In this document: piece by piece, positions 40,996 through 64,000 of the stretch
Position numbering within the stretch: the stretch's first letter is position 1
Layout of the letters: each line of letters starts with the position of its first letter
Assembly: GCA_040219255.1 (NCBI GenBank)
Contig: JAVJSW010000049.1
Location: 58,067-122,066, forward strand
From: Sumerlaeia bacterium
Lineage (GTDB): Bacteria; Sumerlaeota; Sumerlaeia; SLMS01; JAHLLQ01
Length of the DNA: 64,000 nt
Reading direction: 5' to 3'
Position numbers and translations under genes: made by a program
The notes under the pieces: generated by a model
Databases searched by the model: none
Seen by the model: the letters and a program-made list of their open reading frames with translations, nothing else
What the model was told of the DNA's origin: nothing

Positions 40996-41246
40996 ACGTT
41001 ATTTTGGTCCGGGCCCCTCCGCCCGCTCTCCCGATGGATCCCCCAATTCAGTCAACGGCTTTACCCGCCAACTGGAAAGATTCGCCGCCTTTGGGCTGGA
41101 CACGGAGGGGGCGGGCGGCGCTTGTAAGCCACTAAACTCAGCCAGCTTGTGTTGGGTGCAACCGGTTGCGTGTCCTGTCAGCACCAGACCGGCCCCAACA
41201 CCACGACGAAACCGCTGGCGATTACTCCGAGGGAGACTCGACGACC

Positions 41247-42602: not shown

Positions 42603-42637
42603 GAGGCGGTGGACAGCAAGTCATCCTGGATCGCAGA

Positions 42638-43432
42638 ATGCTGAGAACACTTGTCGAGCGAGCCACTCGCAGCAGCGTATTCCGCAGGCGATTGCCTTCG
42701 GCGCTCGGGGGGGCTCGCTTTTTCGTTTCCGCCTCCGCTGGCCTCGGCTACCTGTTCCGCCCCGTTGAAAGGATCGATCCCGCACTCTGTGCTCTGGCCA
42801 GGGAATTCGTCCACACCGATTACGTCGTTTGGGACGTCGGCGCCAACGTAGGGCTGTTCTCCTTCGCGGCGGCTCACCTTGCCGGACCCAATGGCCGTGT
42901 TTGCTCAATCGAACCCGACCTCTGGCTCGTGCAACTGCTCAGGCGTTCGGCGTCTCAACAGCCCTCCACGTCCGCACCGGTGCAGGTCGTTCCATCCGCT
43001 GTAGCGGGGGCCTGTACCCTGAGGACGCTCAACATAGCAACCCGTTCACGAGCCACAAACTGTCTCTCGGGATACGGTTCAACGCAGATGGGAGGGGTCG
43101 CTGAGCAGCAAACCGTGGTGACCGTAACTCTCGACTGGCTTGCGGAATTCCTGCCCCCGCCGGATCTGGTCAAGATCGATGTGGAAGGGGCTGAACTCGA
43201 AGTTCTCCGAGGCGCGGTCAATCTGCTCAGCAGCAATCGACCCATCTTCCTGTGCGAGGTCTGCTCAGAGAATTTTGTCCCTCTGACGTCGCTCTTCCGA
43301 GAATGCGGCTACCGAGTCTTTGATGGCGAAGAACCCGCTGAGCAACGGCAAGAGCTTGACGTGGCCCGCTGGAGTACCATCGCGATTCCCAACTCATCAA
43401 CGCCACCTGCGGACAGCGCCACCGAAGCGTAG
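42638..43432 (+). CDS. FkbM-family SAM-dependent methyltransferase.
   Basis: ORF 42416..43432; Met75. VWDVGANVGLFSF...KIDVEGAELEVLRG...IFLCEV (the FkbM pattern V-D-(I/V)-G-A-N-x-G plus KIDVEG-E-x-VL). Confidence 0.75.
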   Translation: MLRTLVERATRSSVFRRRLPSALGGARFFVSASAGLGYLFRPVERIDPALCALAREFVHTDYVVWDVGANVGLFSFAAAHLAGPNGRVCSIEPDLWLVQLLRRSASQQPSTSAPVQVVPSAVAGACTLRTLNIATRSRATNCLSGYGSTQMGGVAEQQTVVTVTLDWLAEFLPPPDLVKIDVEGAELEVLRGAVNLLSSNRPIFLCEVCSENFVPLTSLFRECGYRVFDGEEPAEQRQELDVARWSTIAIPNSSTPPADSATEA

Positions 43433-48375: not shown

Positions 48376-48473
48376 AAGTTGGCCGTCAGTTTCCGTGAAA
48401 GAGTCGGGCGCGATGGCAAAAGGTTGCCGCGCCATGCACCCTCACCGGACTCGAATCGCCCCGGCGGGGTTTG

Positions 48474-49121
48474 CTAGGGGCGATTGGGCTCGAGGATCAA
48501 CTGCCCCGACAGATCCCGGCGCGCTTTGCGGGCCAGGTCCTCGAGCACTCCCAGTTGGGACGTGAACCAGTCCGTGTCCTGGCCGGACCAGCGCCACACT
48601 TCGTCGCCGCTTTGGACTTCGACGAGGGAGAGTTCCAGATCCGCTTCGCTCTTCCAGGTGTGGAGAGTTTTGTCATGGACCGTGCGCGATTCGCCGACTT
48701 GGCTGCTGAGGACGTAATCGACGTTGAGCGCGCGGCCGTAGTCGAGGGGGTCCTGCATTTGGAGGACGACGAGTCGTTCCTCCGGGGTCAGGCCCGGGTA
48801 GATTTGATTCAGGACGCGCTCCTTGGAAGCCATGAAGGCGGTCAGGTCGGTGCGGGAATAGACCTGGACGCCGGGGATGCGGCCGAATTCGCGGGCGAGG
48901 GCTTCGCCGGCCAGGACGCCGGCGTTGCCACTGTCGTAGCGGTCGCGGGCGGAAAGCCACCATCCGGCGGTGGACTTGCGGGTTTCGCCGTTTTCGACGC
49001 GGGCATCGAGCACCGCCATGGTAACCAGGCCATCGGTGGCTGGCATTTTGCGCGCGCAGCCGGACGTCAGGGCCACCGCCATCAGACAGAACGCGAGAAA
49101 AAGAAATCCACTGGGCCGCAT
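48474..49121 (-). CDS. Hypothetical lipoprotein (lipobox LTSGC).
   Basis: MRPSGFLFLAFCLMAVALTSGCARK: type II signal peptide with an invariant Cys. 215 aa. Confidence 0.6.
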   Translation of the reverse strand: MRPSGFLFLAFCLMAVALTSGCARKMPATDGLVTMAVLDARVENGETRKSTAGWWLSARDRYDSGNAGVLAGEALAREFGRIPGVQVYSRTDLTAFMASKERVLNQIYPGLTPEERLVVLQMQDPLDYGRALNVDYVLSSQVGESRTVHDKTLHTWKSEADLELSLVEVQSGDEVWRWSGQDTDWFTSQLGVLEDLARKARRDLSGQLILEPNRP

Positions 49122-49235
49122 CTCGGACGATATTCCTCATCGCTGGAAATGATGGGGCGGATCGGGTCCACCATCCGGGCCCATAGGGAACCAGGGGCCC
49201 CGCAAGCGTCAAGCGCGGTCGCGGCGCCAGGGGGA

Positions 49236-49268
49236 TACAGAAAACCGCCCCGGAGGATTCCGGGGCGG
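49236..49268 (-). terminator. Putative rho-independent terminator on minus strand (CCGCCCCGG-AATCCTC-CGGGGCGG then TTTTCTGTAT).
   Basis: GC-rich 8-9-bp stem plus T-tract, ~70 nt downstream of the 49334 gene stop on the minus strand. Confidence 0.5.
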
Positions 49269-49333
49269 GGGTCCATGCTCTCAAGCGGGCTCGCGCTGGG
49301 GAGGTGTGGTTCCCATCACCGTCTCACGACGGT

Positions 49334-51019
49334 TTACTGCATGACGACGGAGAAGGAGCTGTGTTGACCGTCTTCCGTGACAGTCTTGCTGGTCACGATG
49401 TTGCCCATGCCGCGGACAATATCGAGGCCCTTGAACATCGCTTCCATGTCGTCGGGCTGCATGCCGGCGCCCACGAACTGGGCAAGGAGGGGCGAGGCGA
49501 TGTCGACGATGCGCTTGAGGTTGACCTGGCTGTACTGGTGGGCTTCGCCAGGGATGTTGCCGCTGGCGGAGGACCAGGCGGCGCCTTCGAAGAGCCCGCC
49601 GTCACCGGCCTTGGCCGCCTTCAGCGCCCCGCGCAGGCTTTCAACGTTCGGCCCGATGACGACGGTGCCGTCTTCAGTCATGGCGTGGAAGAGGCCGAGC
49701 GGCATGCCCATGGCGCCGGGAGCGATAATCGAGCGCACTTCAACGCCCTCGATGGTCTGCACCTGCGGCGTGACGGCGACACCGCCGCCCTGCTGCGCGA
49801 AGACTTGAGCGACGTTGCTCTCCAGCTTCGACATGACGGCCTTGGCCTGGTCCTTGTTCTTGGATTGGGCGACGATGGTCAGGTCGATCTGGGGCATGAA
49901 GCCCATCAGGGCAAAGTCGTTGAAGAAAATGCCGGTGTCGGGGCCAAAGGCGGAGAGCACCTCGTCGGCCTTCATGCCGAGCATGGCTTCGATCTGCTGG
50001 ACGCCCTGCTTCACTTCCGGAGTGGTGGTGGGCGAATTGAGGGACTTTTTCACGGTTTCGCCGTCGAAGAGGTTCGTGACGGTGGCGAAGAGGGCGTCGT
50101 TGGCGGCGAACTCCGCCAGTTTGTCGAAGTTCGAGGTTTCCTGGGCGGCGTAGTTGTCGATGAGGGACTTCATCTGCGAGCCCTCCTCGACGCCGACGAA
50201 GGACTTGCCGTCGATGCGGGACTCGCCGAAGTTCATGACGGCGGCGATGTCGTCGGGGATCATGGACTTGGCTTCGGCCAGTTCGGGGCGCGCGGCCATG
50301 AGAGTTTCGATCAGCGCTTTGCTGGCGAACATGGAGAAATGACCATCCATGCCGACGTTTTCGAAGGCCTTTTTGATGCGTTCGTTTTCCGCCAGGGTGT
50401 TGCCGGTGGAGGTGATGGAGCTGGACAGGGCGCCCATGGAGGAGGAAGCGATGAGAATTTCGCCCATGCGGGTGGCGTGAACGCCGTCGCCGCTGAGGCT
50501 GTAGGTCTTGGTGCCGCTCACTTCGTTTTCGGCGACCATCTCCGCTTCGGCGACGCCTTGACCGGCCATGGCGGCTTTGGATTGCTTGAGGAGGTGCTGG
50601 AGCATCGCTTCAGCGTGCTCCTCGGAGTCGAAGTCGGCGACGATGACCATGGCTTGGTTGTCGGTCATGTAAAGGTCGACGCCCTGGAGGACTTCGCCGA
50701 GGAACTGATCGGGCTTGAGGCTGTACCCCAACTCGAGTTCGGCTTTGTCCATGTTGAGGAGGAAGTCCTGGAACTCGGGGGAATTCTTGACGGCGTTGAG
50801 GGCGAGGAGTTCGCCGAGGCGGGCGGCGACGGGGGACTTGCCGAAGCCTTGCCACATTTCGTTCGTGTCATTGATGCTGACGAAGGCCTCGACACCAGAG
50901 GGAACGCGGTCCGGAACGGCGACTTCCTGGGCCGCGGCGGTCAGGGGCAGAGTGAGAGCGAAAACCGTCGCGACGGCGAAACGCCGGGTGTGGCGCGAAA
51001 AGCGGGATCTGAGAGTCAT
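49334..51019 (-). CDS. Hypothetical secreted protein (~560 aa).
   Basis: ORF 49334..51103; Met29 begins MTLRSRFSRHTRRFAVATVFALTLPLTAAAQE (signal). Uniform codon usage. No catalytic motif recognised. Confidence 0.6.
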   Translation of the reverse strand: MTLRSRFSRHTRRFAVATVFALTLPLTAAAQEVAVPDRVPSGVEAFVSINDTNEMWQGFGKSPVAARLGELLALNAVKNSPEFQDFLLNMDKAELELGYSLKPDQFLGEVLQGVDLYMTDNQAMVIVADFDSEEHAEAMLQHLLKQSKAAMAGQGVAEAEMVAENEVSGTKTYSLSGDGVHATRMGEILIASSSMGALSSSITSTGNTLAENERIKKAFENVGMDGHFSMFASKALIETLMAARPELAEAKSMIPDDIAAVMNFGESRIDGKSFVGVEEGSQMKSLIDNYAAQETSNFDKLAEFAANDALFATVTNLFDGETVKKSLNSPTTTPEVKQGVQQIEAMLGMKADEVLSAFGPDTGIFFNDFALMGFMPQIDLTIVAQSKNKDQAKAVMSKLESNVAQVFAQQGGGVAVTPQVQTIEGVEVRSIIAPGAMGMPLGLFHAMTEDGTVVIGPNVESLRGALKAAKAGDGGLFEGAAWSSASGNIPGEAHQYSQVNLKRIVDIASPLLAQFVGAGMQPDDMEAMFKGLDIVRGMGNIVTSKTVTEDGQHSSFSVVMQ

Positions 51020-51148
51020 GAAGGGATCCTTTAGCGGAAAGTTTGGGGAATACGGGGCAAAAACTTCGGTGGACCTGCCGGTCCGGTCCTCGTTAGGGAA
51101 CACTACGCCCCGGGGAGGGACAATATTTATGAAAGAAGTGTTCCGAAC

Positions 51149-54165: not shown

Positions 54166-55158
54166 TCAGCGCCGCACCTTCAGGTATCGCCGGGCGGCGG
54201 CTTCGTAGGCCAGCGGGCTGAGCCAGCGAATCGGCGCGATGGTGGAGAGCACGCCGGCGGTGTTTGTGAGGGAGGGATTGACGGCCTGGGCCTTGCGGAA
54301 TTGCTCGCGGGCGAGGGACCAGTTGGACTCGAGCCCGGCGTAGAAGGCGGCCATCTGATGGCAGCGGGCATAGCGGGACTGGACGCGCCGTTCGCCAAGA
54401 CGCTCGGCCAGTACGGGATGGCGTTCGAGGAGTTGTTCGAGCCCGCGGCGGGTTTCCTCGTATTGCTCGGCCCGGCGCGGAGCGGCGGCCATGGAGGTGT
54501 TGTTGCCATGCCGGCGCCAGCGGCCCAGCTCGCGGTCGCGCAGGCAAATGGCCGGGCCGACAAGGCCCAGTTCGATCCACTTGAGATAGTCGGTGTTCGG
54601 CCCCGGCCCCCAGAACGGGCCGCTTCGCCGCCAGGCTTCCTTGCGGAACATGACCGAGATGGCGGGGACGAAGCAGTAGTTGGCGAAGAGTTCGGAGGCG
54701 AAATCGCCCTCGACCGGGGGGTAATTGTCGAAGTGGGTGCCGAGGCGCCGCTCATCGTCGTCGATGGCTTCGGCGTTTCCATAGACCATGCTGGCTTCTG
54801 GATTGGCGTCGAGGGCCTCGACTTGCCATTCGGTGCGTTGGCGCGGGAGGAGATCGTCGGAGTCGACGATGCTGACATAGGGGGCGCGGGTCATTTCCGT
54901 GCCGCGATTGCGGGCGGCGACGACGCCGCGGTTTTCTTGACCAAAGGCGCGAATGCGGGGGTCGCGGCGGGCGTAGTCTTCTGCCACCGAGAGGGTGCCA
55001 TCGCGCGATCCATCGTCGACGACGACGATCTCGAAGTCCTGGATCGTCTGATCGAGAATCGAGTCGAGCGTCGCGCCGATATAGCGCTCGTGATTGTAGG
55101 AGGCGATGACGAAGCTGACGCGGGGGACCGGGGGCAATTCATCGCTGGGGAGCGCCAT
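54166..55158 (-). CDS. Glycosyltransferase family 2.
   Basis: ORF 54166..55218; Met21. VSFVIASYNHERYIGATLDSILDQT...IVVVDDGSRDGT...VSIVDSDDLL (DxD). Confidence 0.8.
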   Translation of the reverse strand: MALPSDELPPVPRVSFVIASYNHERYIGATLDSILDQTIQDFEIVVVDDGSRDGTLSVAEDYARRDPRIRAFGQENRGVVAARNRGTEMTRAPYVSIVDSDDLLPRQRTEWQVEALDANPEASMVYGNAEAIDDDERRLGTHFDNYPPVEGDFASELFANYCFVPAISVMFRKEAWRRSGPFWGPGPNTDYLKWIELGLVGPAICLRDRELGRWRRHGNNTSMAAAPRRAEQYEETRRGLEQLLERHPVLAERLGERRVQSRYARCHQMAAFYAGLESNWSLAREQFRKAQAVNPSLTNTAGVLSTIAPIRWLSPLAYEAAARRYLKVRR

Positions 55159-55407
55159 GGTATAGAAGTCCGCGTGGGGGATGGCTTTCGTGAAGATCGG
55201 GCGCGAAAGCTGAGGCAACGAAAGGGAAGGGGGCGGGATGGCTCAACCGGAAAGCCGGGCTCCAGAGGCGGTCCTGTGGCCGAAGGCGCGCCAAATGGGG
55301 GCAGAGCGTCCGGCATTGGCGTTGACCTGAGGAGGCGCCCTAAGTACTCGTCACCATTCCGGGGAGGGCAAGGCGCCACTTACCCAACTTTCGCTAGATC
55401 GTCTCTT

Positions 55408-56286
55408 GTGTCCACTCAAGTTAGCCCCGGCCTGACCATAACTACCATCAGCTCTGACCCACGGGTGCGAGTGATTCAGGCGATTCGCGACCTGGTGGAG
55501 TACCGCGAGTTGTTCATGGCGTTCGTGATGCGCGATCTGCGGGTCCGCTATAAGCAGACGGCCCTGGGCGTGGTCTGGGTGGTGCTTCAGCCGCTGATTA
55601 CGGGTGTGGTCTTCGCAGCGATTTTCGGTCTGATCCGGGGACAGTTCTCCGGGGCCGACGCGCTGCTGTTCTTCATGGCGGGCCTGGTTCCCTGGACCAG
55701 TTTTCAGAAGGGCGTGCAGACGGCGGCGATGAGCCTGGAGCAGAACGCGAATCTGGTGGCGAAGGTGTACTTTCCCCGCATGACGGTGCCGTCGGCCTAT
55801 GTGATCGCGTCGATGGTGGATTTTCTGTTCGCGTTTATCACGCTGGTGGCGATCGCGGTGCTGGCGGGAGCCTTCGATTGGCGATTGGTGGCGCTGGCGC
55901 CGATGCTGATGCTGATTCAGATGGTGGCCGGTTTGGGGATGGGTCTGCTGACGGCGCCGCTCAACGCGCAATACCGGGACGTGAAGTACATCATCCCGTT
56001 CGTGTTGCAGTTGGGGATGTTCCTGACGGTTTGGATTCCGTTGGAGCAATGGCGGCAAGGTGAGGTGGGTTTCGGGGCCGAGATCGCTTGGATCGAGCCC
56101 TACATCTACCAGATTCTGTCCTTGAACCCGATGGCGGCGGTCGTCGAGACTTTCCGGGCTGTCCTGCAGGGGAGCGCTCTGAACTGGGTTCTGATCGGCA
56201 AGGGTGCCGGCGTCGCGGCCGTTCTCCTGATCGTGGGAGTTCGATTCTTCACCAGCCGCGAACGGCGGCTCGTCGATATTCTGTAG
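55408..56286 (+). CDS. wzm: ABC-2 type polysaccharide export permease (Wzm/KpsM/TagG-like). Start uncertain: GTG at 55408 or 55465, or ATG at 55516.
   Basis: IRDLVEYRELFMAFVMRDLRVRYKQTALGVVWVVLQP is the canonical Wzm N-terminus. 6 TM helices. Confidence 0.75.
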   Translation: MSTQVSPGLTITTISSDPRVRVIQAIRDLVEYRELFMAFVMRDLRVRYKQTALGVVWVVLQPLITGVVFAAIFGLIRGQFSGADALLFFMAGLVPWTSFQKGVQTAAMSLEQNANLVAKVYFPRMTVPSAYVIASMVDFLFAFITLVAIAVLAGAFDWRLVALAPMLMLIQMVAGLGMGLLTAPLNAQYRDVKYIIPFVLQLGMFLTVWIPLEQWRQGEVGFGAEIAWIEPYIYQILSLNPMAAVVETFRAVLQGSALNWVLIGKGAGVAAVLLIVGVRFFTSRERRLVDIL

Positions 56287-56288
56287 AG

Positions 56289-57620
56289 GTGTCTGTGTCC
56301 GGACCGGAGGTTCAAAGCCCCCCCGCCATCGTCAAGTCGGCGGATACAACGCCGGGCACGGCGGCGTCTTCTCGCTCGGCGATTCAGATGAATGGGATCG
56401 GCAAGCGTTATCGGCTGGGCGATTCGCGGCGGATGAACGACTCGCTGGGCGACGAAATGGCGGGCTGGTTCTCGCGCTGGCGCCGGCGGGGCCAAGACAA
56501 GGATGGCGACAGTCTGTTTTGGGCGCTGCGGGGCATCGATCTGGAAGTGATGCGCGGAGACACGGTGGGCATTATCGGGCGCAACGGCGCGGGAAAGTCC
56601 ACCCTGCTCAAGATCCTCAGCCGCATCACGACCCCCACGACGGGAACGATGCGATACATGGGGCGTCTGGCCAGTCTGCTGGAAGTGGGCACCGGTTTCC
56701 ACCGCGAACTGACGGGCCGAGAGAACATCTTCCTGAACGGTTCCATCCTGGGCATGCGCCGCCGTGAAATCGAACAACAGTTCGACGCCATCGTGGAATT
56801 CGCCGGTACGGAAAAGTTCCTCGACACCCCGGTCAAATTCTACTCCAGCGGCATGTACGTGCGCCTGGCCTTCGCCGTGGCGGCCCATCTGCGCACCGAC
56901 ATCCTGGTGGTGGACGAAGTGCTGGCTGTGGGGGACGCGCAGTTTCAGAAGAAATGCCTCGGCAAAATGCAGGACGTGGCGGGCGACGGGCGAACGGTGC
57001 TGTTTGTGAGCCACAACATGGCGACCGTTCAAAGGCTTTGCGCGTCGTGCATTTACCTGCGCGATGGTCAATTGGTCACATCCGGAGAGACGGTGCAGGT
57101 GATTCAGGAGTACCTGAAGAGCGGCATCAACCTGGGAGCGTGTGCGGATCGCGGTCCTGATCCTTCGTTCCCGATGCGGCTGCGGACGGCTGCGGTGGTG
57201 GACGAGGAGGGAGAGATTCTGCACCAGGTCGAGCGCTCGCAGAAGGCTTTCCTCTCCGTGCGTTACGACATCAACGAACCGGTGAAGGATGTCCACGTGG
57301 TCTGTCACATCACGGATATGCAAAACAACATTATCGTAAGCACGGGCGATTGCGACATGGGTCGGGACGTTTCCGCGGTCCGGTCTCCCGGAGCGTACGA
57401 AGGACGATTTCAAATTCCTTCCCACACGCTGAACGATGGGAGCTACTCTGTCACGGTTGCACTGGGGATCCCCTACCGGACGGTTTACGACCGGGAGGCC
57501 TCCTGCGCAGATTTTCAAGTCGTGGATTTGCGGCGCGAAGAAGGCCCGACGTACGCCCAGCGGCGTCCGGGCTTCTTGGCCATCGATATTCCGTGGGAAG
57601 TGGTAAGGGTCGAAGAATGA
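56289..57620 (+). CDS. wzt: ABC transporter ATP-binding protein Wzt/KpsT-like with C-terminal carbohydrate-binding-type extension.
   Basis: Walker A GRNGAGKST. LSGG-like YSSGMYVRLAFA. Walker B ILVVDEVLAVGD. ~170-aa beta-rich C-terminal domain beyond the NBD (Wzt_C-like). GTG start 3 nt after the wzm stop; alternative ATG at 56388. Confidence 0.8.
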   Translation: MSVSGPEVQSPPAIVKSADTTPGTAASSRSAIQMNGIGKRYRLGDSRRMNDSLGDEMAGWFSRWRRRGQDKDGDSLFWALRGIDLEVMRGDTVGIIGRNGAGKSTLLKILSRITTPTTGTMRYMGRLASLLEVGTGFHRELTGRENIFLNGSILGMRRREIEQQFDAIVEFAGTEKFLDTPVKFYSSGMYVRLAFAVAAHLRTDILVVDEVLAVGDAQFQKKCLGKMQDVAGDGRTVLFVSHNMATVQRLCASCIYLRDGQLVTSGETVQVIQEYLKSGINLGACADRGPDPSFPMRLRTAAVVDEEGEILHQVERSQKAFLSVRYDINEPVKDVHVVCHITDMQNNIIVSTGDCDMGRDVSAVRSPGAYEGRFQIPSHTLNDGSYSVTVALGIPYRTVYDREASCADFQVVDLRREEGPTYAQRRPGFLAIDIPWEVVRVEE

Positions 57621-58525
57621 GAGACGGCGAAATGAATCCCGCACCCAAAGCGGAGCCCCGGATCGATCAACTCCCGGTCATAGACGTGACCAGCGAGTTC
57701 CCCAAGCCCAAGAAGGAGAAGCCGAAGAGCTTCTGGGGCCGCGTTTCGAAGAGCGTGCGCTACCACCTGTTCGGCCCGGCGCCGGCGGATTCGAACCCCT
57801 TCACGCCCTACATGGCGCGGCTGAATCTGTTGGATCGGACGGCGGACTTTCCGGTGATTTTTCCGAAGCACCGTTGGTGCTTCGTGCGCTTCTCCGACGA
57901 AGGGGATTTCCTGACGGCGATGATGAAGGACATTCGTCCGGCGGACGTTGTCTGGGATGTCGGTTCTTTCCTCGGCATGGTGACGGTCTTCGCCGGAAAG
58001 TTCGCGAGCGAGGGCCGCGTTATCGCCATCGAACCGGACCCGGCACTGGCGGCGCGGACGCGCAAGAATCTGGTGCTCAACGGCGTGAAGAACGCTGAGG
58101 TGATCGAGGTGGGACTGGGCGAGGAGGAAGGCACGGTTCGGCTGAACACGAGCGGCGAGTCGGGCGCCGCGCCGGCGATCATGGACAAGGGCCTGGAGAC
58201 CTACATCGAAATCGCCATCAAGACCGTGGATCAATTGGTCGCCGAAGAGCCGGCCCGCTTCCCGAACATTCTGAAAATCGATGTCGAAGGGTTTGAAACG
58301 CATGTCCTGCGGGGAATGAAGGCGACGCTGGAGGACGAGCGTTTGCGGAGCATCTACCTGGAACTGCATCCCGTCTATCTGTTCAAGAAGGGGGAAGCGA
58401 TCGAGGAACCGCTGGTCTTGCTGCGCGAGGCGGGATTCGAGATGACGTATTGCCTGGTCAAGCGCCAGGAGATGGTCTTCGCGTTTCAGCGAAAGTCGAA
58501 GAAGGCGGCGGCGTCCGGTTCCTGA
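57617..58525 (+). CDS. FkbM-family methyltransferase (second copy).
   Basis: ORF 57350..58525; Met90. The ATG overlaps the wzt stop (ATGA). VWDVGSFLGMVTVFA...KIDVEGFETHVLRG. Confidence 0.75.
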   Translation: MRDGEMNPAPKAEPRIDQLPVIDVTSEFPKPKKEKPKSFWGRVSKSVRYHLFGPAPADSNPFTPYMARLNLLDRTADFPVIFPKHRWCFVRFSDEGDFLTAMMKDIRPADVVWDVGSFLGMVTVFAGKFASEGRVIAIEPDPALAARTRKNLVLNGVKNAEVIEVGLGEEEGTVRLNTSGESGAAPAIMDKGLETYIEIAIKTVDQLVAEEPARFPNILKIDVEGFETHVLRGMKATLEDERLRSIYLELHPVYLFKKGEAIEEPLVLLREAGFEMTYCLVKRQEMVFAFQRKSKKAAASGS

Positions 58526-58682
58526 CGGATCGGCACCGCGCTCCCACCGCCTCGCCAGGGGCCAAAACGTCTTGCATCCCGCGCGTCAATCGACGGTTTA
58601 TTCCCCCTCCCGCTCAAGAGGGCGGAAGAATCCTGGGAGCGAGCACGCCCTCCCAACCGTTTTGAAGAGGCCCATCGGACTC

Positions 58683-59681
58683 GTGAGCAAGAATGCAGTC
58701 ATATTGGGAGGCGGCGCCATCGCCATCAATTTCCATCTGCCGCGGGTGAAAACGATGCTCGGGGCGGAGAGGGTTGTCGTGGTGGAGGTGAGCGCTCCGC
58801 GGAGGGAAGAACTCGCCCGCGAGTTCGGAAGCGACCGGTCGGTGGAGATCGTGGAGTCGCTTCCGGCGACCGGCCAGTTCGATTTCGCCGTGATCGCCAC
58901 ACCACCCAAGTTCCACTTTGAATACTTCGAGCAACTCAAGGGCCGGGCGCGGGACATCCTGATCGAGAAACCCATGACGTTGAACGCGGAGGAAGCTCGC
59001 CGCGTGGCAGAGATCTGTGCCGGCGGTGGTCCCCGGGTTTACGTGGCGTTGATCCGGAGGACGCTGGGCGGGTTCGCCCTGATCCGGGAGATGATCCGGG
59101 CCAATCAGTTCGGCGCGCTGAAGAAGGTCACTCTGACGGAGGGTGGCATTTTCGGTTGGATGGCCGTTTCCATGGGGTCCTTTTCGCGGACCCTGAACGG
59201 CGGCGGCGTCCTGATGGACACGGGGCCCCATACCATCGACCTGCTGTTTCAGGTGTTCGACACCGTCGAATTCCAAGCCAGTTGGATGGATGCGGACCTG
59301 AGCGAAGGCGGCGAAACGATCGAGGCCAATTGCACGCTGGACCTCTTGGCGGACGGCGCGGTGCCGGTGCGCCTGAGCCTGAGCCGCAATCGCAACTTCT
59401 CAAACCTGGCGGTCTTCGAATTCGAAGCGGCGGTCTGCAAAGTCGGCGTCCGCGACGACGAGGTCACGGTGGACATGGCCTCGGGGGTGCCGCTGAAGGC
59501 GATGCCGACCGACGAATTCGCCGAGATGGGCAAAGACTTCAAAGCTCTCTTCGACAGGTATTACGCTCGGTTCTTGCTCCGCCAGGACAACACCGGCGTG
59601 GCTCCGGAAGACTCGGAGAAGATCGCTCGGATCATCGACGCCGCTTACCAGAACGCCCAACCGATCAAGGGAGGATTCTGA
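58683..59681 (+). CDS. Gfo/Idh/MocA-family NAD(P)-dependent oxidoreductase.
   Basis: GTG start (VSKNAVILGGGAIAINFHLP...). The rest follows the Gfo/Idh/MocA layout: FAVIATPPKFHFEYFE..L..G..ILIEKPMTLNAEEA. Confidence 0.75.
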   Translation: MSKNAVILGGGAIAINFHLPRVKTMLGAERVVVVEVSAPRREELAREFGSDRSVEIVESLPATGQFDFAVIATPPKFHFEYFEQLKGRARDILIEKPMTLNAEEARRVAEICAGGGPRVYVALIRRTLGGFALIREMIRANQFGALKKVTLTEGGIFGWMAVSMGSFSRTLNGGGVLMDTGPHTIDLLFQVFDTVEFQASWMDADLSEGGETIEANCTLDLLADGAVPVRLSLSRNRNFSNLAVFEFEAAVCKVGVRDDEVTVDMASGVPLKAMPTDEFAEMGKDFKALFDRYYARFLLRQDNTGVAPEDSEKIARIIDAAYQNAQPIKGGF

Positions 59682-60826
59682 TGCGCGTCGCGATCTTTGG
59701 CGGAACGGGGTTCATGGGTTACGATTTCGTGCGTCTGCTTCTTGACGAAGGGACCCACGAACCGGTGGTGTACTGCACGAGCCCAAAAAACCTGACGAAT
59801 TTGCGGCGCCATCCGGTCGCGGTCCGTTTCGTTCCTCCGCACCTGATGGCCAATGAAAACCTGGACGAAGACATCGACCTGATCGTCAACTTCGCCCATC
59901 CTTTCCAACAACGCGACCAGATGACGCCGAATCAGCAGACCGATCTGTTCGTCCGGTTCCTGGAAAAAGCGCGCGCCAGGAACCCGAAACTCCGGATGGT
60001 GCATATCAGCACCTTGTCGGTGTACGAGCCTTTCTCCGAGGACAAAGAATATGCCGAGACCGATCCGCTCGACCCTCCCGGATCGGATCTCTATGCGACG
60101 ACGAAACTTTACGCCGAGAAGGCGATCCGCGGAATCGCGGGTGCGGAGGAGTGGCAGGTGGTCTTGCGGCCGACGATCGTTTACGGGTCATTTTGCCGCC
60201 CGTGGACCGATGGGTTGCTGAAGGCTTTCGCCGAGGGCGACGTGGGCTATTGCGATCTGGGCGGCATGATTCAGCCGATCACGGGCCGCGACATCTCGCG
60301 CTTCATCCGTCGTGTGATGGACGATTTCAAGCCCGGCGTCTACAACATGGCGGGCCAGGAGAAGGTCTCCTGGAAGGAATTCTTCACGCTGTTCCAGGAA
60401 GTGGTCGGCGAGGGCCGGTTGGTGCAGGTCGAACCGCCTCCGCCGGGCGCGGTGCCGGTGCAGCTCGACGGGCTGGCGTTCTATCGCTTCCACGCCAAGG
60501 AATTGCAGAGAGTCATCGTGGCGAATCGGTCTTTTAACGCCATCGCGACGCGTATGGCGAAACCGGTGCCTCGGACGCTGGTGATGAAGGTGCGCCGTTC
60601 GCTGGGCCTGGACAAGCCTCCGGCTCCAAGACGCGCGGGCGCGGCGGCCGCCGGAACGGACGTGCAATTGCAGTTCACGAAGCCCTTCTTCGGGGAAGAC
60701 CGGCTGGTGTCGCGGGCGCATTTCGAGGATACCTTTCCCGATTTCGCGACCACGCCGCTCGGCCAAATGAAAGAGACTTTACGCGAGTATTACGAATATC
60801 GGTTCACCGATAAGATTTATACGTAA
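59681..60826 (+). CDS. NAD-dependent epimerase/dehydratase (extended SDR).
   Basis: The ATG shares 1 nt with the upstream TGA. MRVAIFGGTGFMGYDFVRLL (TGxxGxxG). YATTK (YxxxK catalytic pair). Confidence 0.75.
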   Translation: MRVAIFGGTGFMGYDFVRLLLDEGTHEPVVYCTSPKNLTNLRRHPVAVRFVPPHLMANENLDEDIDLIVNFAHPFQQRDQMTPNQQTDLFVRFLEKARARNPKLRMVHISTLSVYEPFSEDKEYAETDPLDPPGSDLYATTKLYAEKAIRGIAGAEEWQVVLRPTIVYGSFCRPWTDGLLKAFAEGDVGYCDLGGMIQPITGRDISRFIRRVMDDFKPGVYNMAGQEKVSWKEFFTLFQEVVGEGRLVQVEPPPPGAVPVQLDGLAFYRFHAKELQRVIVANRSFNAIATRMAKPVPRTLVMKVRRSLGLDKPPAPRRAGAAAAGTDVQLQFTKPFFGEDRLVSRAHFEDTFPDFATTPLGQMKETLREYYEYRFTDKIYT

Positions 60827-60847
60827 AGGCTCGAATGGAGATTCACG

Positions 60848-61585
60848 GTGGAAAAGACAGAAATCTACGACAGCCTGAACAAGACCTACTTCTCGGAGGA
60901 TTGCGACGAGCGCCGGACGCTGGACGCCCTGCCACCGCTGCTTCGCAACGCCAAGCGATTTGTGGACATCGGCGCGAGTCTTGGCCAATATACCCGGTAT
61001 TGCAACAAGCACTTGAATGGCGCGAAGATGTGGGCGATCGAAGCCGATCCGGTCCGCTATGAAGAATTGGCGCGCAATTGTGCACAATGGCAGGGCGAAA
61101 GCTCGAACACCATCGATGTCATTCATGGCGCGGTCTCGGATCAAGTCGGGGAGATCGTCTTCTATACGAGCAACAGCACCGTCAGCGGCGGTCTCTTTCA
61201 GCATGCAGTCAAGAGTGGGGATGTGGAATGGCAGGAGGTGCGAGTTCCTGCCTGCACGCTCGATTCCCTCTTTTCAAATGAGCCTCCGGATTTTATCAAG
61301 ATCGATGTCGAAGGCGTGGAACTGCGTGTCCTCAAAGGCAGCGTGGAAATTTTGAAGAAGAAGAAGACGTTTCTCCTGGTCGAGGTTCATAGTTGGGCCG
61401 ATCCCCAAGGACAAAAGAATCCCCGGGAAGTGTTGGACTTCATGAAGTCTCATGGTTACTATGCCCTGCCCTTCCACGGCAAGTACCTCTTTATGCCGAT
61501 GTCCGCGGAGTACCTGAGGCGGCGCTGGCGCTCGCTGTTCAACAAAGCCAAGCAGCGCCTCTTGCCCCGCCGGAAAGCCAGTTGA
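60848..61585 (+). CDS. FkbM-family methyltransferase (third copy), in lower-GC segment.
   Basis: FVDIGASLGQYT...FIKIDVEGVELRVLKG...FLLVEVH. Confidence 0.75.
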   Translation: MEKTEIYDSLNKTYFSEDCDERRTLDALPPLLRNAKRFVDIGASLGQYTRYCNKHLNGAKMWAIEADPVRYEELARNCAQWQGESSNTIDVIHGAVSDQVGEIVFYTSNSTVSGGLFQHAVKSGDVEWQEVRVPACTLDSLFSNEPPDFIKIDVEGVELRVLKGSVEILKKKKTFLLVEVHSWADPQGQKNPREVLDFMKSHGYYALPFHGKYLFMPMSAEYLRRRWRSLFNKAKQRLLPRRKAS

Positions 61586-61592
61586 GGACGGC

Positions 61593-62447
61593 ATGGTGAC
61601 CCCCGCGCAAGAAACCGTTCCAACCCCACGGTTCGACTCCGTCTACAACCCCTTGGAGCGGGGCATACTGCGACTGATGACGCGGAGAAAGCGAAAGCGG
61701 ACGTTTTTTGATCTCTATGAACGGCTGAAGTCGTCACGCGGTGATGTGACCCCTTTTCGTAACCGTCATGAAGGCGAGCGCTGCTTCATTATGGGCGGCG
61801 GGCCCTCGCTCAAGAAAATCGACCCCACGTTTCTCAAATCCGAGATAACGTTTGGGGTCAATGGCGTCTTCCTGATTTTCGATTGGCTCGGATTTCAACC
61901 GGATTATTATGCCGTGGAAGATCGATTGGTGTTCGAGGATCGATGGAATGACATTCGAAAATTCGTCACGAAGCCAGAGTGCTTCTTCTCCATTCAATTT
62001 GCGTGCCCCCAGTTCGACCGCCCCAATCACCACTATCTTCGGTCGATTTACGATTTTGACCCTGCCGCCGGTTTCCCGCGCTTTAGCGAAGACGTCAGCA
62101 AGGTTGTCTGGATCGGTGGCACAGTGACCTACGTCTGCATGCAGCTTGCCTTCTACATGGGATTCCAGGAAGTTTATCTGATTGGGATGGATCACAATTA
62201 TGCCAGGCCCGATCACGTTCAGGCGGAGGGCAATGTGTGGACGAGTCATGGCGAGGACCCAAACCATTTCCATCCGGATTATTTCGGCAAGGGATACCGG
62301 TGGCACGATCCCAAGGTGGACCGGATGGAGACGGCTTATCGCAAAGCGAAAGACGTTTTCGAAGCGCACGGCCGCAAGATCTACAACGCGACCGCCGGCG
62401 GTCAGCTCGAGGTTTTCGAGAGAGTGAACTACAATGACCTCTTCTGA
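61593..62447 (+). CDS. 6-hydroxymethylpterin diphosphokinase MptE-like / DUF115 (Maf-type) protein, commonly a glycan-modifying transferase.
   Basis: CFIMGGGPSL......ITFGVNG.........YYAVEDRLVFEDRW pattern (G-x-G-P-S...N) typical of the MptE-like / motility-accessory-factor family. Confidence 0.65.
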   Translation: MVTPAQETVPTPRFDSVYNPLERGILRLMTRRKRKRTFFDLYERLKSSRGDVTPFRNRHEGERCFIMGGGPSLKKIDPTFLKSEITFGVNGVFLIFDWLGFQPDYYAVEDRLVFEDRWNDIRKFVTKPECFFSIQFACPQFDRPNHHYLRSIYDFDPAAGFPRFSEDVSKVVWIGGTVTYVCMQLAFYMGFQEVYLIGMDHNYARPDHVQAEGNVWTSHGEDPNHFHPDYFGKGYRWHDPKVDRMETAYRKAKDVFEAHGRKIYNATAGGQLEVFERVNYNDLF

Positions 62448-63402
62448 GACAACGCCCTCGACTCCATCGGTGAGCGTCGTGGTCTGCACGCGCAACTCGA
62501 AGCATCGCGTGGAGGAAACGCTTCGAAGCTTACGGACTCAGTCCATGGCTCGCGAGCGGTACGAGGTTCTCGTCGTCGACAACGCCTCCGACGACGGCAC
62601 CGATGAGATTTTGCAGGCTTTGTGCGCCGAGCTTGAACTGACCTACATCGAAGAACCGGAGCTTGGACTCTCCGCCGCCCGCAACCGCGGGATTCTCGAT
62701 TCGGCCGGTGAACTGATTTACTTTATCGACGATGACGCCGTCGCGCCGCCGTTCTTGCTCGATGTGCTCTGGGCGGATTTCGTTCGCGAAAACGCCGACG
62801 CCGTTGGCGGGGCGGTGCATGGTCTGTGGGAAGAAACTCCGCCCGCCTGGTTGAACTCGAACCTGTGGCGCGGACTCAGCCTTTTGTCTTACGGGAACGA
62901 AGCCCGGCCGCTCGTCTATCCGGAGATTTTGATCGGAACCAACGTGGGTTTCCGGCGAAATGTGTTTGAGCGCTATGGCTACTTCGATCCCGATCTGGGC
63001 CGGAAAGGCGACAATTTGATGGGCAACGAGGAACGGGCGCTGGAAAAGCGTATTCTCGAAGACGGCGGGTTGGTTTTCTACAATCCTTCGGCTTTCGTGT
63101 TCCACAAGGTTCCCATCGCGCGCATGACGCATGGCTATATGTTCGAACGCATTCGCCAGGCGAGCCTGAGCGTTGGCCGGATGCGGGATTCGGACCTTAC
63201 CCGCCGGCGAATCGTCGAACCTCTCTGGAAGGCAAGCTTGCGTGTCGTCTACGATTCGGCCAACCGGCGTGTGGTCCCCATCTGCCGGGGTCTGTATCGC
63301 GCGTGGATCACCGGATTCGAAACCTTCCGGGTCGAAATGGTGATGCTCCAGGCGGCCCTCAGGGCGAGAAAGGAACTCCAAAAGGCGAACCATCATGACT
63401 GA
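62434..63402 (+). CDS. Glycosyltransferase family 2.
   Basis: VSVVVCTRNSKHRVEETLRSL.TQ...YEVLVVDNASDDGT....IYFIDDDAV (DxD). Confidence 0.8.
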   Translation: MTSSETTPSTPSVSVVVCTRNSKHRVEETLRSLRTQSMARERYEVLVVDNASDDGTDEILQALCAELELTYIEEPELGLSAARNRGILDSAGELIYFIDDDAVAPPFLLDVLWADFVRENADAVGGAVHGLWEETPPAWLNSNLWRGLSLLSYGNEARPLVYPEILIGTNVGFRRNVFERYGYFDPDLGRKGDNLMGNEERALEKRILEDGGLVFYNPSAFVFHKVPIARMTHGYMFERIRQASLSVGRMRDSDLTRRRIVEPLWKASLRVVYDSANRRVVPICRGLYRAWITGFETFRVEMVMLQAALRARKELQKANHHD

Positions 63403-64000
63403 CAAAGACGCTATCCACCTCCTGACCCCTGCGCTGGTCGAACAGAACCCATTCCTCGCCATTCGCGTACTGGGTCAAAGTTCCCGGCTGGCCAAGCCTC
63501 TTGGCTGGCACTATCTGTTCGATCTCGTGTGGATCCTGCGCGAACTCGAAAGCCTGAAGCCCGGTTCCACCGTCCTCGAAGTTGGCGCCGGAATGGGGCT
63601 ACTCCAGTTCCTGCTAGCCGACAGCGGCTACAAAGTCATTTCCGCCGACATGGGGCTCCGCCGCCCCTTCGCCGCCACAGAGCACCTTTACCGCTTTGGC
63701 GAGATGGGGACCTCGGGCGAAATCGATCACGATTATTTGAAGCACCACGAACGCGCGACAAAGCCCGGCGTGGGTCTGCCCACCCTCAATGGAATTCTCG
63801 ACGCATCGCCGCGCAAGGCCCTGCGCGCGGTTCGCAAGTTGCTCAAACAGGACCCGGTTCGAAAGCAAAAACCCGCCACCAAGGAAGACCGCCCCGAGAT
63901 CACGCTGTACCGATGCGACGCCAGCAACATGGCCGAACTCAAAGACAACTCCGTCGACGCGGCGGTCTCGGTCTCGGCCCTCGAGCACAATCCCGCGGAG
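63395..64000 (+). CDS. Class I SAM-dependent methyltransferase (Methyltransf_11-like), 3'-truncated at window end.
   Basis: The ATG overlaps the upstream stop (ATGACTGA). VLEVGAGMGLLQFLLADSGYKVISADM is SAM-binding motif I. Not in the ORF track because the frame runs off the window. Confidence 0.6.
   Translation, partial: MTDKDAIHLLTPALVEQNPFLAIRVLGQSSRLAKPLGWHYLFDLVWILRELESLKPGSTVLEVGAGMGLLQFLLADSGYKVISADMGLRRPFAATEHLYRFGEMGTSGEIDHDYLKHHERATKPGVGLPTLNGILDASPRKALRAVRKLLKQDPVRKQKPATKEDRPEITLYRCDASNMAELKDNSVDAAVSVSALEHNPAE

Follow-up and report, generated by a model that had tools for sequence, protein, structure and literature searches.

A Wzm/Wzt glycan cluster of an uncultured Sumerlaeia bacterium carries a predicted CMP-sugar-dependent 'mini-Maf' glycosyltransferase and a putative CMP-sugar cassette

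Introduction

The E. coli O8/O9a O-antigen system comprises the WbdA-C polymerases, the terminator WbdD and a Wzm/Wzt transporter with a carbohydrate-binding C-domain. In Klebsiella pneumoniae O12 and Raoultella terrigena, WbbB contains a GT99 beta-Kdo-transferase, and the resulting cap is read by Wzt; in the Wzm/Wzt O-antigen pathway of Vibrio cholerae O1, the FkbM-like protein RfbT/WbeT methylates terminal perosamine (serotype Ogawa). Maf enzymes use CMP-Neu5Ac and CMP-Kdo as donors (bioRxiv 10.1101/2020.06.03.131540), while EpaA/EpaB of Acinetobacter baumannii prophages, in which a CTP_transf_3-aldo-keto-reductase fusion is paired with an adh_short SDR, turn Pse into 8-epi-Pse (PMC12053666).

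Here we describe a gene cluster, located at the end of a 64,000-nucleotide stretch of DNA (the window) of an uncultured Sumerlaeia bacterium, that is predicted to assemble, methylate and export a sugar polymer of the cell surface. Its overall design is familiar. Pfam gene content supports the assignment, made earlier in a sequence-only reading, to the Wzm/Wzt (ABC-transporter-dependent) glycan systems: as in E. coli O8/O9a, there is an ABC-2 permease, a Wzt with a Wzt_C domain, cytoplasmic glycosyltransferases and a transporter-linked methyltransferase that could act in capping, and Wzx/Wzy were not found in the cluster. It differs from O8/O9a in lacking a WbdD-like kinase domain and an identifiable coiled-coil ruler, in having a candidate capping enzyme of the FkbM family rather than a WbdD-type class-I methyltransferase, and in the addition of a CMP-sugar cassette and a predicted transferase of sialyltransferase fold.

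Results and Discussion

Extent and organization of the cluster

The cluster extends from window position 54166 to position 17131 of L001 (window-equivalent 70779), i.e. over about 16.6-17 kb. L001 represents the same contig as the window (0 mismatches over 10352 bases). The upstream two-thirds lie in the window, where all ten genes named in the sequence-only reading were found, with Pfam matches above the gathering thresholds (Table 1); wzm matches to the NCBIfam Wzm/RfbD and KpsM models were below the cut-offs of those models. The remaining ~6.8 kb beyond the window end contains, in order, the rest of the class-I methyltransferase (313 aa in full, L001 9747-10688), a 441-aa GT-B-like protein, CTP_transf_3, GT2, Cyclase, 2-Hacid_dh, adh_short and another GT2. 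Genes for a priming transferase, a ligase or outer-membrane export were not found within the cluster. The JGI contig L002 is syntenic with the cluster along nearly its full length.

Table 1. Features of the glycan cluster and its upstream surroundings (window coordinates)
Feature	Position	Strand	Support or remark
ugd and third FkbM (FkbM3)	41166-43432		11 kb upstream of cluster
GT2, divergent (330 aa)	54166-55158	-	Glycos_transf_2, 8e-31
GT2/wzm divergent intergenic region	55159-55470	.	presumed promoter region
wzm, ABC-2 permease (271 aa)	55471-56286	+	ABC2_membrane, 1.5e-12; GTG start as called on L001
wzt, ABC ATPase with C-terminal carbohydrate-binding-type domain (441 aa)	56295-57620	+	ABC_tran, 4.6e-19; Wzt_C, 1.9e-13
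Wzt C-domain (residues about 294-441)	57174-57617	+	Wzt_C, 1.9e-13; all-beta AlphaFold model
FkbM1 methyltransferase (302 aa)	57617-58525	+	Methyltransf_21, 2.4e-19; TIGR01444, 105 bits (cut-off 37.7)
Gfo/Idh/MocA oxidoreductase (332 aa)	58683-59681	+	GFO_IDH_MocA, 2.9e-16
Extended SDR, epimerase/reductase type (381 aa)	59681-60826	+	Epimerase, 3.9e-16; RmlD_sub_bind, 4.4e-13
FkbM2 methyltransferase (245 aa)	60848-61585	+	Methyltransf_21, 1.8e-21
MptE-like/DUF115 'mini-Maf' protein (284 aa)	61593-62447	+	Pfam, 51 bits (cut-off 34.6)
GT2b glycosyltransferase (322 aa)	62434-63402	+	Glycos_transf_2, 4.2e-27
Class-I SAM methyltransferase (cut by window end)	63395-64000	+	Methyltransf_11, 2.9e-6

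Start/stop overlaps had been claimed throughout this gene set. Those named are real, i.e. (i) ATGA, in which the FkbM1 start lies over the wzt stop, (ii) the single base common to the Gfo stop and the SDR start at 59681 (TGATG), and (iii) ATGACTGA at 63395-63402, shared by GT2b and the class-I methyltransferase; the MptE-like gene and GT2b also overlap, by 14 nt. The remaining junctions are gaps of 8, 46-157, 21 and 7 nt, and the overlaps are therefore not continuous. Two gene starts deserve comment: the Gfo/Idh/MocA gene has an alternative TTG start at 58572 (369 aa), and GT2b has to start at the ATG at 62434 if its domain is to be complete, since position 1 of the Glycos_transf_2 profile falls on residue 14. 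The intergenic region upstream of wzm contains no sigma-70 or terminator pattern and no Rfam family. The lower GC content noticed in the FkbM2/MptE-like segment was confirmed (0.554 and 0.538, respectively, whereas the other cluster genes have ~0.61 and the whole window 0.63).

The ugd gene and FkbM3, described earlier as lying just upstream, are present but separated from the cluster by 11 kb of DNA encoding an LPG-synthase-like membrane protein, an ECF-type sigma factor, three unknown minus-strand ORFs, dxr and rseP; the latter converges with the divergent GT2, their stops being 3 nt apart. Because of this distance and the unrelated intervening genes, both lie outside the cluster operon, and the count of three FkbM genes does not hold for the cluster itself.

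The MptE-like protein is a predicted glycosyltransferase

The model of the MptE-like protein (pLDDT 96) has the Maf/Cst-II sialyltransferase fold together with the Cst-II GxGPSL motif, and its best fold matches are Maf glycosyltransferase, archaeal HPPK, Cst-I and GT29 sialyltransferases. At the sequence level, a family profile recovers HPPK, Cst-II and Maf, which share the motifs GnGPSLk and Y.C..lA..mGy.EvyL.G.D..Y with it, although the matches to Cst-II and Maf are marginal (E 0.01-0.06; 0.01-0.02 for Campylobacter jejuni Cst-I/Cst-II, CAZy GT42). We therefore predict a CMP-sugar-dependent glycosyltransferase, whose putative donor is unlikely to be Neu5Ac, since a NeuB-type synthase is absent. 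Compared with the flagellin nonulosonic-acid glycosyltransferases of the Maf type (PDB 5mu5; DUF115/MptE-like), which have about 600-670 aa, the protein is much shorter (284 aa), lacks the flanking Maf domains and is encoded in a polysaccharide export cluster rather than a flagellar locus.

The neighbourhood of the gene is partly conserved: the adjoining Gfo-SDR pair is kept in L002-L006, L036 and L043, and the adjacency to FkbM2 in L003-L005 and L019. One could also picture a kinase or pyrophosphokinase that, together with the adjacent FkbM2, caps the chain with phosphate or methyl phosphate, in the manner of the kinase-methyltransferase WbdD of E. coli O9a; we consider such an activity improbable.

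Relatives of the MptE-like protein were identified in at least 574 species genomes. Fusions of the domain with GT2, GT1/GT4, TPR and epimerase domains are known from proteins of 600-2500 aa, with up to four copies of it in each, and MptE-GT2 fusion proteins are among them. The frequent fusion to polymerising GT2/GT4 domains favours a role in chain building over capping, and suggests that the acceptor is probably a glycan and not flagellin.

A widespread cassette points to an acidic 2-keto sugar

The most distinctive content of the cluster is a CMP-sugar-synthetase cassette, which the sequence-only reading missed because the downstream third of the cluster lies outside the window. About 70% of MptE-like relatives are found within 10 kb of this cassette (GT2, CMP-sugar-synthetase-like protein, 2-hydroxyacid dehydrogenase and SDR), usually in the fixed order GT2c-CTP3-2Hacid-SDR. 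Among 45 MptE-related loci flanked by at least 8 kb on each side, a CTP_transf_3 homologue was present within 10 kb in 33, 2-Hacid_dh in 31 (both together in 30), GT2c in 29 and adh_short in 26; about 30% of these loci thus have no nearby CTP_transf_3.

The closest solved relatives of the CTP_transf_3 cytidylyltransferase are CMP-sialic acid and CMP-Kdo synthetases. The cassette SDR and 2-Hacid_dh match many unrelated dehydrogenases about equally well. Combined with the fold of the MptE-like protein, the cassette suggests that the polymer contains an acidic 2-keto sugar. In this respect the cluster resembles that of K. pneumoniae O12, i.e. an inferred CMP-activated 2-keto sugar acid in an ABC-transporter-dependent pathway with a C-domain-bearing Wzt, but the predicted transferase is of Maf/GT42-like fold and not GT99, and a dedicated, divergent cytidylyltransferase with oxidoreductases implies a sugar other than housekeeping Kdo. 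The cassette is also present in Chloroflexota and Actinomycetota MAGs, i.e. in phyla generally considered to be devoid of LPS and hence of an obvious Kdo pool.

A lactonase-type hydrolase (Cyclase, metallo-beta-lactamase-fold or SMP-30 gluconolactonase, the last adjoining the SDR in 4 of its 5 loci) recurs in cassette loci, with an HpcH aldolase plus HAD phosphatase as the alternative. The occurrence of the cassette in Chloroflexota and Actinomycetota, together with its frequent lactonase or HpcH aldolase, suggests de novo synthesis of the sugar acid; its origin is conjectural here, since L001 lacks a NeuB/KdsA-type synthase or aldolase. EpaA/EpaB, in which a cytidylyltransferase and two oxidoreductases modify a 2-keto sugar acid and activate it anew, provide a parallel to CTP_transf_3, 2-Hacid_dh and adh_short, the difference being that the second oxidoreductase of the cassette is a 2-hydroxyacid dehydrogenase instead of an aldo-keto reductase. 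The 441-aa GT-B-like protein shows weak similarity to the T. forsythia Pse/Leg-transferase family and contains QEG and HP motifs (PMC5420450).

The Wzt C-domain and the chain end

The window Wzt, which shares 100% identity with P0121 from a Sumerlaeia MAG, carries a genuine Wzt_C domain, as proposed earlier, and not a linker. The domain scores 51 bits (Pfam cut-off 30.4), the AlphaFold model shows residues 294-440 as all-beta (pLDDT mostly >90), and the best Foldseek matches are to full-length Aquifex aeolicus Wzt with its carbohydrate-binding domain (E ~1e-36, ~400 columns). A phmmer search of PDB sequences gave 2e-61 over residues 75-391 (8dku). A. aeolicus WzmWzt (PDB 7k2t, 8dku, 8dl0) is the best solved relative across both domains, although identity is only about 31-32%.

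This C-domain subtype (34-45% identity) was found only in Wzt proteins from clusters with the MptE/CTP_transf_3 cassette. All four homologues picked solely on C-domain identity of at least 34% come with the cassette, with an MptE-like gene and with a methyltransferase immediately 3' of wzt, while none of three homologues whose ATPase domains are as similar but whose C-domains are of another type has the MptE-like gene (one-sided Fisher p = 1/35, calculated by hand from seven look-ups); this linkage could stem from common descent of whole clusters instead of ligand recognition. All examined clusters of the subtype that were reached via Wzt have a methyltransferase gene immediately after wzt, and such a gene occupies this position in L002, L062, L083, L085, L086 and the P0127 contig. 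FkbM1 is therefore a plausible candidate for the chain-capping enzyme.

The earlier suggestion of a methyl cap read by Wzt is thus plausible, whereas its novel terminator chemistry is not supported. Spelled out in full, such a version would be centred on the operon: three FkbM proteins, the class-I methyltransferase and ugd would yield a heavily methylated polymer with a new methyl-type terminator recognised by Wzt_C, the MptE-like protein being incidental. Every gene named does exist, a methyltransferase is coupled to wzt, and RfbT of V. cholerae sets a precedent for terminal methylation of the FkbM type; FkbM2 matches V_cholerae_RfbT (PF05575) only weakly, below the Pfam cut-off (2.3e-4, 21 bits against 27.9). 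We nevertheless give this version little credence: ugd and FkbM3 are remote, the three FkbM proteins share a mutual identity of only 27-33%, there is no sign of new cap chemistry, and the conserved cassette and its cross-phylum linkage with the MptE-like gene are left out.

It is also conceivable, though rather unlikely, that the acid sugar is itself the cap, with the MptE-like enzyme adding one terminal 2-keto sugar acid that stops elongation and serves as the Wzt_C ligand, and the methyltransferases decorating internal residues only. The co-variation of the C-domain subtype with the acid-sugar genes (4/4 against 0/3), the single MptE-like copy in the window and the beta-Kdo cap precedent of WbbB would fit such a role, for which the protein is only a candidate. 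A repeat-unit role is better suited to relatives so often fused to polymerising GT2/GT4 domains, with 2-4 copies per protein or locus. Moreover, L036 and L070 combine the cassette with a Wzt C-domain of another type, and the methyltransferase after wzt is equally well linked to the subtype.

Proposed pathway and its significance

The genes and folds observed, together with synteny, co-occurrence and domain fusions, make it probable in our view that the product of the cluster is an O-methylated, ABC-transporter-dependent polymer with a CMP-activated 2-keto sugar acid among its components and a methyl cap read by Wzt_C. The GT2 enzymes and the MptE-like protein, acting as a minimal Maf/Cst-II-type transferase, would assemble the lipid-carrier-bound chain on the cytoplasmic side of the membrane. 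The putative donor would be supplied by the downstream CTP_transf_3, 2-hydroxyacid dehydrogenase, SDR and lactonase-like hydrolase, and the GT-B-like protein with the HP motif may be a second CMP-sugar transferase. The FkbM and class-I methyltransferases would O-methylate the chain, FkbM1 (translationally coupled to wzt) probably adding the terminal methyl group. The finished end would then be recognised by the Wzt C-domain, and the chain exported by Wzm/Wzt. The distinctive content of this otherwise familiar system is a widespread and unstudied gene set, which probably serves to produce and transfer an unusual acidic sugar.

Extent and organization of the cluster

Six-frame ORF listing and Pfam scans located all the genes named in the sequence-only reading. 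The overlaps from which that reading had deduced a single coupled operon are also real, i.e. the ATGA shared by wzt and FkbM1, the single base at position 59681 and ATGACTGA at 63395-63402, and there is a further overlap of 14 nt between the MptE-like gene and GT2b. Coupling throughout is, however, too strong a description, since the other junctions are gaps of 8, 46-157, 21 and 7 nt (the range being set by the choice of the Gfo start). A search for promoter and terminator patterns and Rfam families found nothing in the regulatory region or across 40-64 kb.

The cluster runs beyond the end of the window. Along 10352 bases the Logan contig L001 shows 0 mismatches to the window; downstream of these it runs on through eight further genes or gene parts, followed by convergent, unrelated genes. 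The cytidylyltransferase, Cyclase-type hydrolase, 2-hydroxyacid dehydrogenase and SDR genes of this part lie within L001 12119-16133. The whole cluster is therefore approximately 16.6 kb long, and the window contains its first two-thirds. Proteins 100% identical to the MptE-like protein and Wzt are encoded by a Sumerlaeia MAG; exact-sequence look-ups of the 443-aa Wzt and the 322-aa GT2b returned no match among public proteins, because the public gene calls start at other codons.

Features of the glycan cluster and of the upstream region (window coordinates unless L001 is given)
Feature	Position	Strand	Pfam family or remark
Large protein, 1215 aa	35686-39333	+	Endonuclease I and Calx-beta domains
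Two-domain protein	39569-40900	+	NAGPA phosphodiester-glycosidase and Golvesin_C
ugd and FkbM3	41166-43432	
Sigma-70 r2/r4 protein, 583 aa	45339-47090		long extensions
Three ORFs (423, 215, 589 aa)	47164-51103	-	zero Pfam matches; high GC3
Divergent GT2	54166-55158	-	Glycos_transf_2
wzm	55471-56286	+	ABC2_membrane
wzt	56295-57620	+	ABC_tran, Wzt_C
FkbM1	57617-58525	+	Methyltransf_21
Gfo/Idh/MocA oxidoreductase	58683-59681	+	GFO_IDH_MocA
Extended SDR	59681-60826	+	Epimerase
FkbM2	60848-61585	+	Methyltransf_21
MptE-like	61593-62447	+	MptE-like
GT2b	62434-63402	+	Glycos_transf_2
Class-I methyltransferase	63395 to past window end (cut)	+	Methyltransf_11
Methyltransferase, remainder	L001 downstream		full length 313 aa
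441-aa protein	L001 downstream		no significant Pfam family
Cytidylyltransferase	L001 downstream		CTP_transf_3
GT2c	L001 12843-13751		GT2
"Cyclase"-family hydrolase	L001 downstream		PF04199
D-2-hydroxyacid dehydrogenase	L001 downstream		2-Hacid_dh
SDR	L001 downstream		adh_short
Last GT2 of cluster	L001 downstream		GT2

The ugd gene and a third FkbM gene (FkbM3), which had been counted with the cluster, are indeed present, but they are separated from it by 11 kb of other genes, comprising an LPG-synthase-type membrane protein, an ECF-like sigma factor, three unknown minus-strand ORFs, dxr and rseP. The intervening dxr, rseP and unrelated genes rule out both as cluster members. All three FkbM proteins belong to the TIGR01444/PF05050 family (FkbM1 105, FkbM2 97 and FkbM3 86.8 bits, with a cut-off of 37.7). 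Their pairwise identity is only 27-33%.

Several other genes were observed in the upstream region. The 1215-aa protein is likely to be a large nuclease, either secreted or located at the surface. The gene of the NAGPA/Golvesin_C protein lies shortly before ugd and FkbM3 and could be a member of a small, distinct set of glycan-modification genes. The three consecutive ORFs at 47164-51103 adjoin the sigma-70 protein. Plus-strand ORFs considered at 45.6-51 kb have no Pfam matches and were rejected, GC3 placing the coding strand of 47.2-51.1 kb on the minus strand.

The transporter and its C-terminal domain

The genes wzm (ABC2_membrane) and wzt (ABC_tran) are neighbours, 8 nt apart, and the PDB chains most closely related to Wzt are those of Wzt, TarH and TagH. 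Pfam matches to Wzx or Wzy are absent from all genes of window 54166-64000 and of L001. The known and candidate glycosyltransferase genes of the cluster are five GT2, one MptE-like and one GT-B-like. Neither a priming phosphoglycosyltransferase nor a ligase nor an outer-membrane export partner was found among the called cluster genes, and therefore an O-antigen, a capsule-like polymer and another glycoconjugate are indistinguishable. The missing genes may sit elsewhere in the genome, as do wecA and waaL of E. coli.

The C-terminal binding domain ascribed to Wzt, which might have been just a linker, proved to be genuine. Residues 298-413 match Wzt_C (PF14524) with 51.1 bits (gathering cut-off 30.4, E 1.9e-13), the AlphaFold model (67 homologues) is all-beta at residues 294-440 with pLDDT mostly >90, in line with a beta-sandwich appended to the nucleotide-binding domain, and the best PDB match by both sequence and structure is the full-length Aquifex aeolicus Wzt, including its carbohydrate-binding domain. 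The cluster departs from the E. coli O9a system, in which WbdD unites a kinase, a methyltransferase and a coiled-coil ruler in one protein: FkbM1 is a single-domain FkbM protein of 302 aa, and no cluster protein matches a kinase family.

Many Wzt homologues share 63-72% identity with the window protein in the ATPase domain, and from 45% down to 24% in the C-domain. Similarity restricted to the ATPase part (59-76% identity) was also observed for the Sumerlaeota proteins P0139, P0143, P0146, P0147 and P0213, and at L084 10001-11350. In P0132, from another Sumerlaeota genome, the ATPase domain is 76% identical and C-domain similarity is undetectable. Such ATPase-only matches with sequence-unrelated C-domains make it appear that C-domains have been swapped between otherwise close transporters.

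Gene content around seven Wzt homologues, selected by C-domain identity and contig size only, with gene context not known beforehand
Wzt	C-domain identity	MptE-like, CTP_transf_3 and 2-Hacid_dh	After wzt
P0124	>=34%	yes	methyltransferase
P0125	>=34%	yes	methyltransferase
P0127	>=34%	yes	methyltransferase
P0129	>=34%	yes	155-aa ORF and 99-aa FkbM-domain ORF
P0132	none detectable	no; pyruvyl transferase present	PS_pyruv_trans
P0164	<=26%	no; NeuB and CTP_transf_3 route	methyltransferase
P0201	<=26%	no; pyruvyl transferase present	GT4

The cassette accompanies the C-domain subtype of the window Wzt in 4/4 cases, as against 0/3 for the others (one-sided Fisher p = 1/35, calculated by hand on a small sample). 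The two short ORFs that follow wzt at P0129 are apparently one split FkbM gene. This distribution of C-domains fits a modular exchange matched to the glycan. Descent of entire clusters from a common ancestor is a confounder here; the cassette-bearing loci L036 and L070 have different C-domains.

The MptE-like protein

The model of the 284-aa MptE-like protein (70 homologues) has a pLDDT of 96. A single-sequence PDB search gave spurious mitoribosomal matches only; the family profile recovers HPPK, the sialyltransferase Cst-II and Maf by sequence, with marginal E-values. Residues G68, G70, P71, S72 and L73 are invariant across the family, whose alignment with Cst-II has GnGPSLk and Y.C..A..lGy.E.yL.G.D..Y in common. 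GT42 enzymes (Cst-I and Cst-II) combine a modified GT-A fold of sialyltransferase type with an N-terminal G-N-G-P-S CMP-binding motif, and the sequence match to Cst-II is marginal.

Maf enzymes, which transfer nonulosonic acids and Kdo from their CMP-activated forms (bioRxiv 10.1101/2020.06.03.131540), possess the same central MptE-like/DUF115 catalytic domain. They are, however, approximately 600 aa long with additional N- and C-terminal domains (186 residues of the window protein align to a 632-residue chain), and their genes lie in flagellar glycosylation loci, whereas the window gene is placed amid polysaccharide genes. The protein also matches the 6-hydroxymethylpterin pyrophosphokinase MptE in fold and family; a pterin, folate or methanopterin gene context is absent, the neighbours being glycan genes both in the window and at 80 related loci. 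That the protein is a kinase is a rival view which we consider unlikely.

At E <=1e-3 the family includes 7498 representative clusters (50% identity, public data), and 1150 at <=1e-30. Many members are 600-2500 aa long and carry 1-4 MptE-like domains fused to GT2, GT1/GT4, TPR, epimerase or radical-SAM domains, as would be expected of enzymes that polymerise the glycan in pathways dependent on a transporter. MptE-GT2 fusions such as P0258 and P0246 are single-protein counterparts of the MptE-like and GT2b genes, which overlap in the window. P0255 joins a radical-SAM/SPASM domain to its MptE-like domain, and so does P0074 (precomputed Pfam listing); a radical-SAM/SPASM enzyme is also encoded after the post-wzt FkbM gene at L086 6344-7393 and on the P0127 contig at 8334-9356. 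The precomputed Pfam domains of P0066, P0085, P0092, P0097 and P0107 give PF27901 beside PF01973; a local Pfam scan did not reproduce PF27901 on P0066.

A conserved, putative acid-sugar cassette

Counting one genome per species, relatives of the MptE-like protein are present in at least 574 species-level genomes of more than a dozen phyla. Cultured bacteria with the module include Nitrococcus mobilis Nb-231, Larkinella rosea KCTC 52004, Mucilaginibacter kameinonensis, Stappia albiluteola and Thalassovita mangrovi. We retrieved 80 loci from many phyla and identified recurring genes by tblastn with the cluster proteins. At the 45 loci whose flanks reach 8 kb or more in both directions, the genes within 10 kb included a CTP_transf_3 homologue (33 loci, median 44% identity), 2-Hacid_dh (31; together with CTP_transf_3 in 30), GT2c (29), the adh_short SDR (26) and wzm/wzt (12). 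GT2c, CTP_transf_3, 2-Hacid_dh, SDR is the commonest cassette order. GT2c homologues were observed in 45/81 loci, with a median identity of 44% across phyla and mostly directly upstream of the cytidylyltransferase gene; the place of a glycosyltransferase inside an otherwise precursor-synthesis-like cassette is puzzling.

In a JGI metagenome contig (L002), an almost identical cluster keeps the order wzm, wzt, FkbM, Gfo, SDR, methyltransferase, MptE-like, GT2, GT2, Cyclase, CTP_transf_3, 2-Hacid_dh, SDR, GT2. The Gfo-SDR-FkbM2-MptE-GT2b block is also found in gammaproteobacterial MAGs (L003-L005, 43-64% identity). This shared block, taken together with the low GC content of FkbM2 (0.554) and the MptE-like gene (0.538) relative to the cluster (~0.61) and the window (0.63), supports the lateral exchange of modules proposed earlier from the GC dip.

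Clustering of all neighbouring ORFs distinguished two cassette variants, both with CTP_transf_3, 2-Hacid_dh and an MptE-like gene. The first has an added lactonase-type hydrolase, i.e. a Cyclase, a metallo-beta-lactamase-fold protein or an SMP-30 gluconolactonase (the last adjoining the SDR in 4/5 of its loci), and the second an HpcH/HpaI pyruvate aldolase, an extended SDR and a HAD phosphatase. The cytidylyltransferase carries PF02348, and among PDB chains it is closest to synthetases of CMP-Neu5Ac and CMP-Kdo (E 1.7e-10 to 4e-3). It fits none of the NCBIfam equivalogs, the best being PseF (54.6 bits, cut-off 205.7), and is therefore placed at superfamily level only. These findings lead us to propose that the product of the cassette is a CMP-activated 2-keto sugar acid. 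The MptE-like protein may use a CMP-linked donor, given the co-occurrence of its gene with CTP_transf_3 in 33/45 loci.

The acid could originate in two ways. An aldose may be oxidised by the SDR and then processed by the lactonase and the 2-hydroxyacid dehydrogenase, or an existing ulosonic acid may be remodelled. A precedent for the latter is provided by EpaA/EpaB of A. baumannii, a cytidylyltransferase-reductase fusion plus an SDR (PMC12053666). An EpaAB-like Kdo-derivative origin is weakened by the presence of the cassette in Chloroflexota and Actinomycetota MAGs and by the associated lactonase and aldolase genes. The 4-deoxy-hexulosonic acid of E. coli K3 was considered as a lead, and no gene set could be linked to it.

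The 441-aa protein is a candidate second CMP-sugar transferase, judging from a weak match to the T. forsythia Pse/Leg-transferase family and from QEG and HP motifs, of a kind described for bacterial sialyltransferases (PMC5420450). Tblastn against related loci showed no conservation of this protein, and a PDB search with the single sequence gave no match. At L087 10001-17520 of Geomonas azotofigens, we observed a cluster of wzm, wzt, a methyltransferase gene, NeuB, a CTP_transf_3-HAD fusion, a pyruvyl transferase gene and FkbM, which is parallel in logic to that of the window and different in its acid-sugar route.

Proposed function and significance

The best-supported reading of the cluster is an ABC-transporter-dependent surface polymer that contains an acid sugar, is O-methylated and has a methyl end read by Wzt_C. 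Its chain would be built by the GT2 enzymes and the sialyltransferase-fold MptE-like transferase, the latter inserting the CMP-derived 2-keto sugar acid. FkbM and class-I methyltransferases would O-methylate the chain, and a terminal methyl group, probably added by FkbM1 (whose gene is coupled to wzt), would be read by Wzt_C before export. The analysis establishes the families, folds, synteny, co-occurrence and domain fusions; the enzyme activities, the donor, the cap and the acceptor of this scheme are deduced. The co-variation of C-domain subtype with cluster content gives indirect support to recognition of a modified non-reducing end of the cognate glycan. It would also suit a rival, less likely explanation in which the acid sugar itself is the cap; a methyltransferase or FkbM-domain gene follows wzt at all four loci with this subtype, and a methyltransferase gene also does so at P0164. 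The sequence-only reading, a further rival that we consider unlikely, was centred on methylation, proposing a heavily methylated or capped polysaccharide. The methyltransferase genes of the cluster accord with it, FkbM3 is no longer among them, and it leaves aside the cassette that accompanies the subtype. We prefer the polymer with both acid sugar and methyl end.

Rather doubtfully, we extend this to a glycan system shared across phyla, consisting of NeuB/KdsA-free synthesis of a CMP-2-keto acid, an as yet undescribed "mini-Maf" family of minimal sialyltransferase-fold glycosyltransferases building it into polymer, and Wzm/Wzt with a co-evolved C-domain subtype. The synthesis would proceed through the aldose dehydrogenase-type SDR, lactonase and 2-hydroxyacid dehydrogenase, or in the sister variant through the HpcH pyruvate aldolase.

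Wzm/Wzt clusters in which Wzt has a carbohydrate-binding domain and which encode several methyltransferases are of a known overall design, and the present one is unremarkable in this respect, although its phylum has been little studied. The searchable literature yielded no paper on the MptE-like/CMP-sugar cassette, and both the cassette and its association with one subtype of Wzt C-domain appear to be uncharacterised. The added value lies in the conserved module, in which the genes of a family of small Maf/Cst-II-fold transferases are tightly linked to those of a divergent CMP-sugar synthetase and two oxidoreductases. If the proposed chemistry is true, the module would represent a new way of making CMP-activated keto sugar acids and a new glycosyltransferase family using them, and it would offer a set of naturally swapped Wzt C-domains with which to determine what such domains recognise. 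Since several cultured bacteria carry the module, this question is directly testable.
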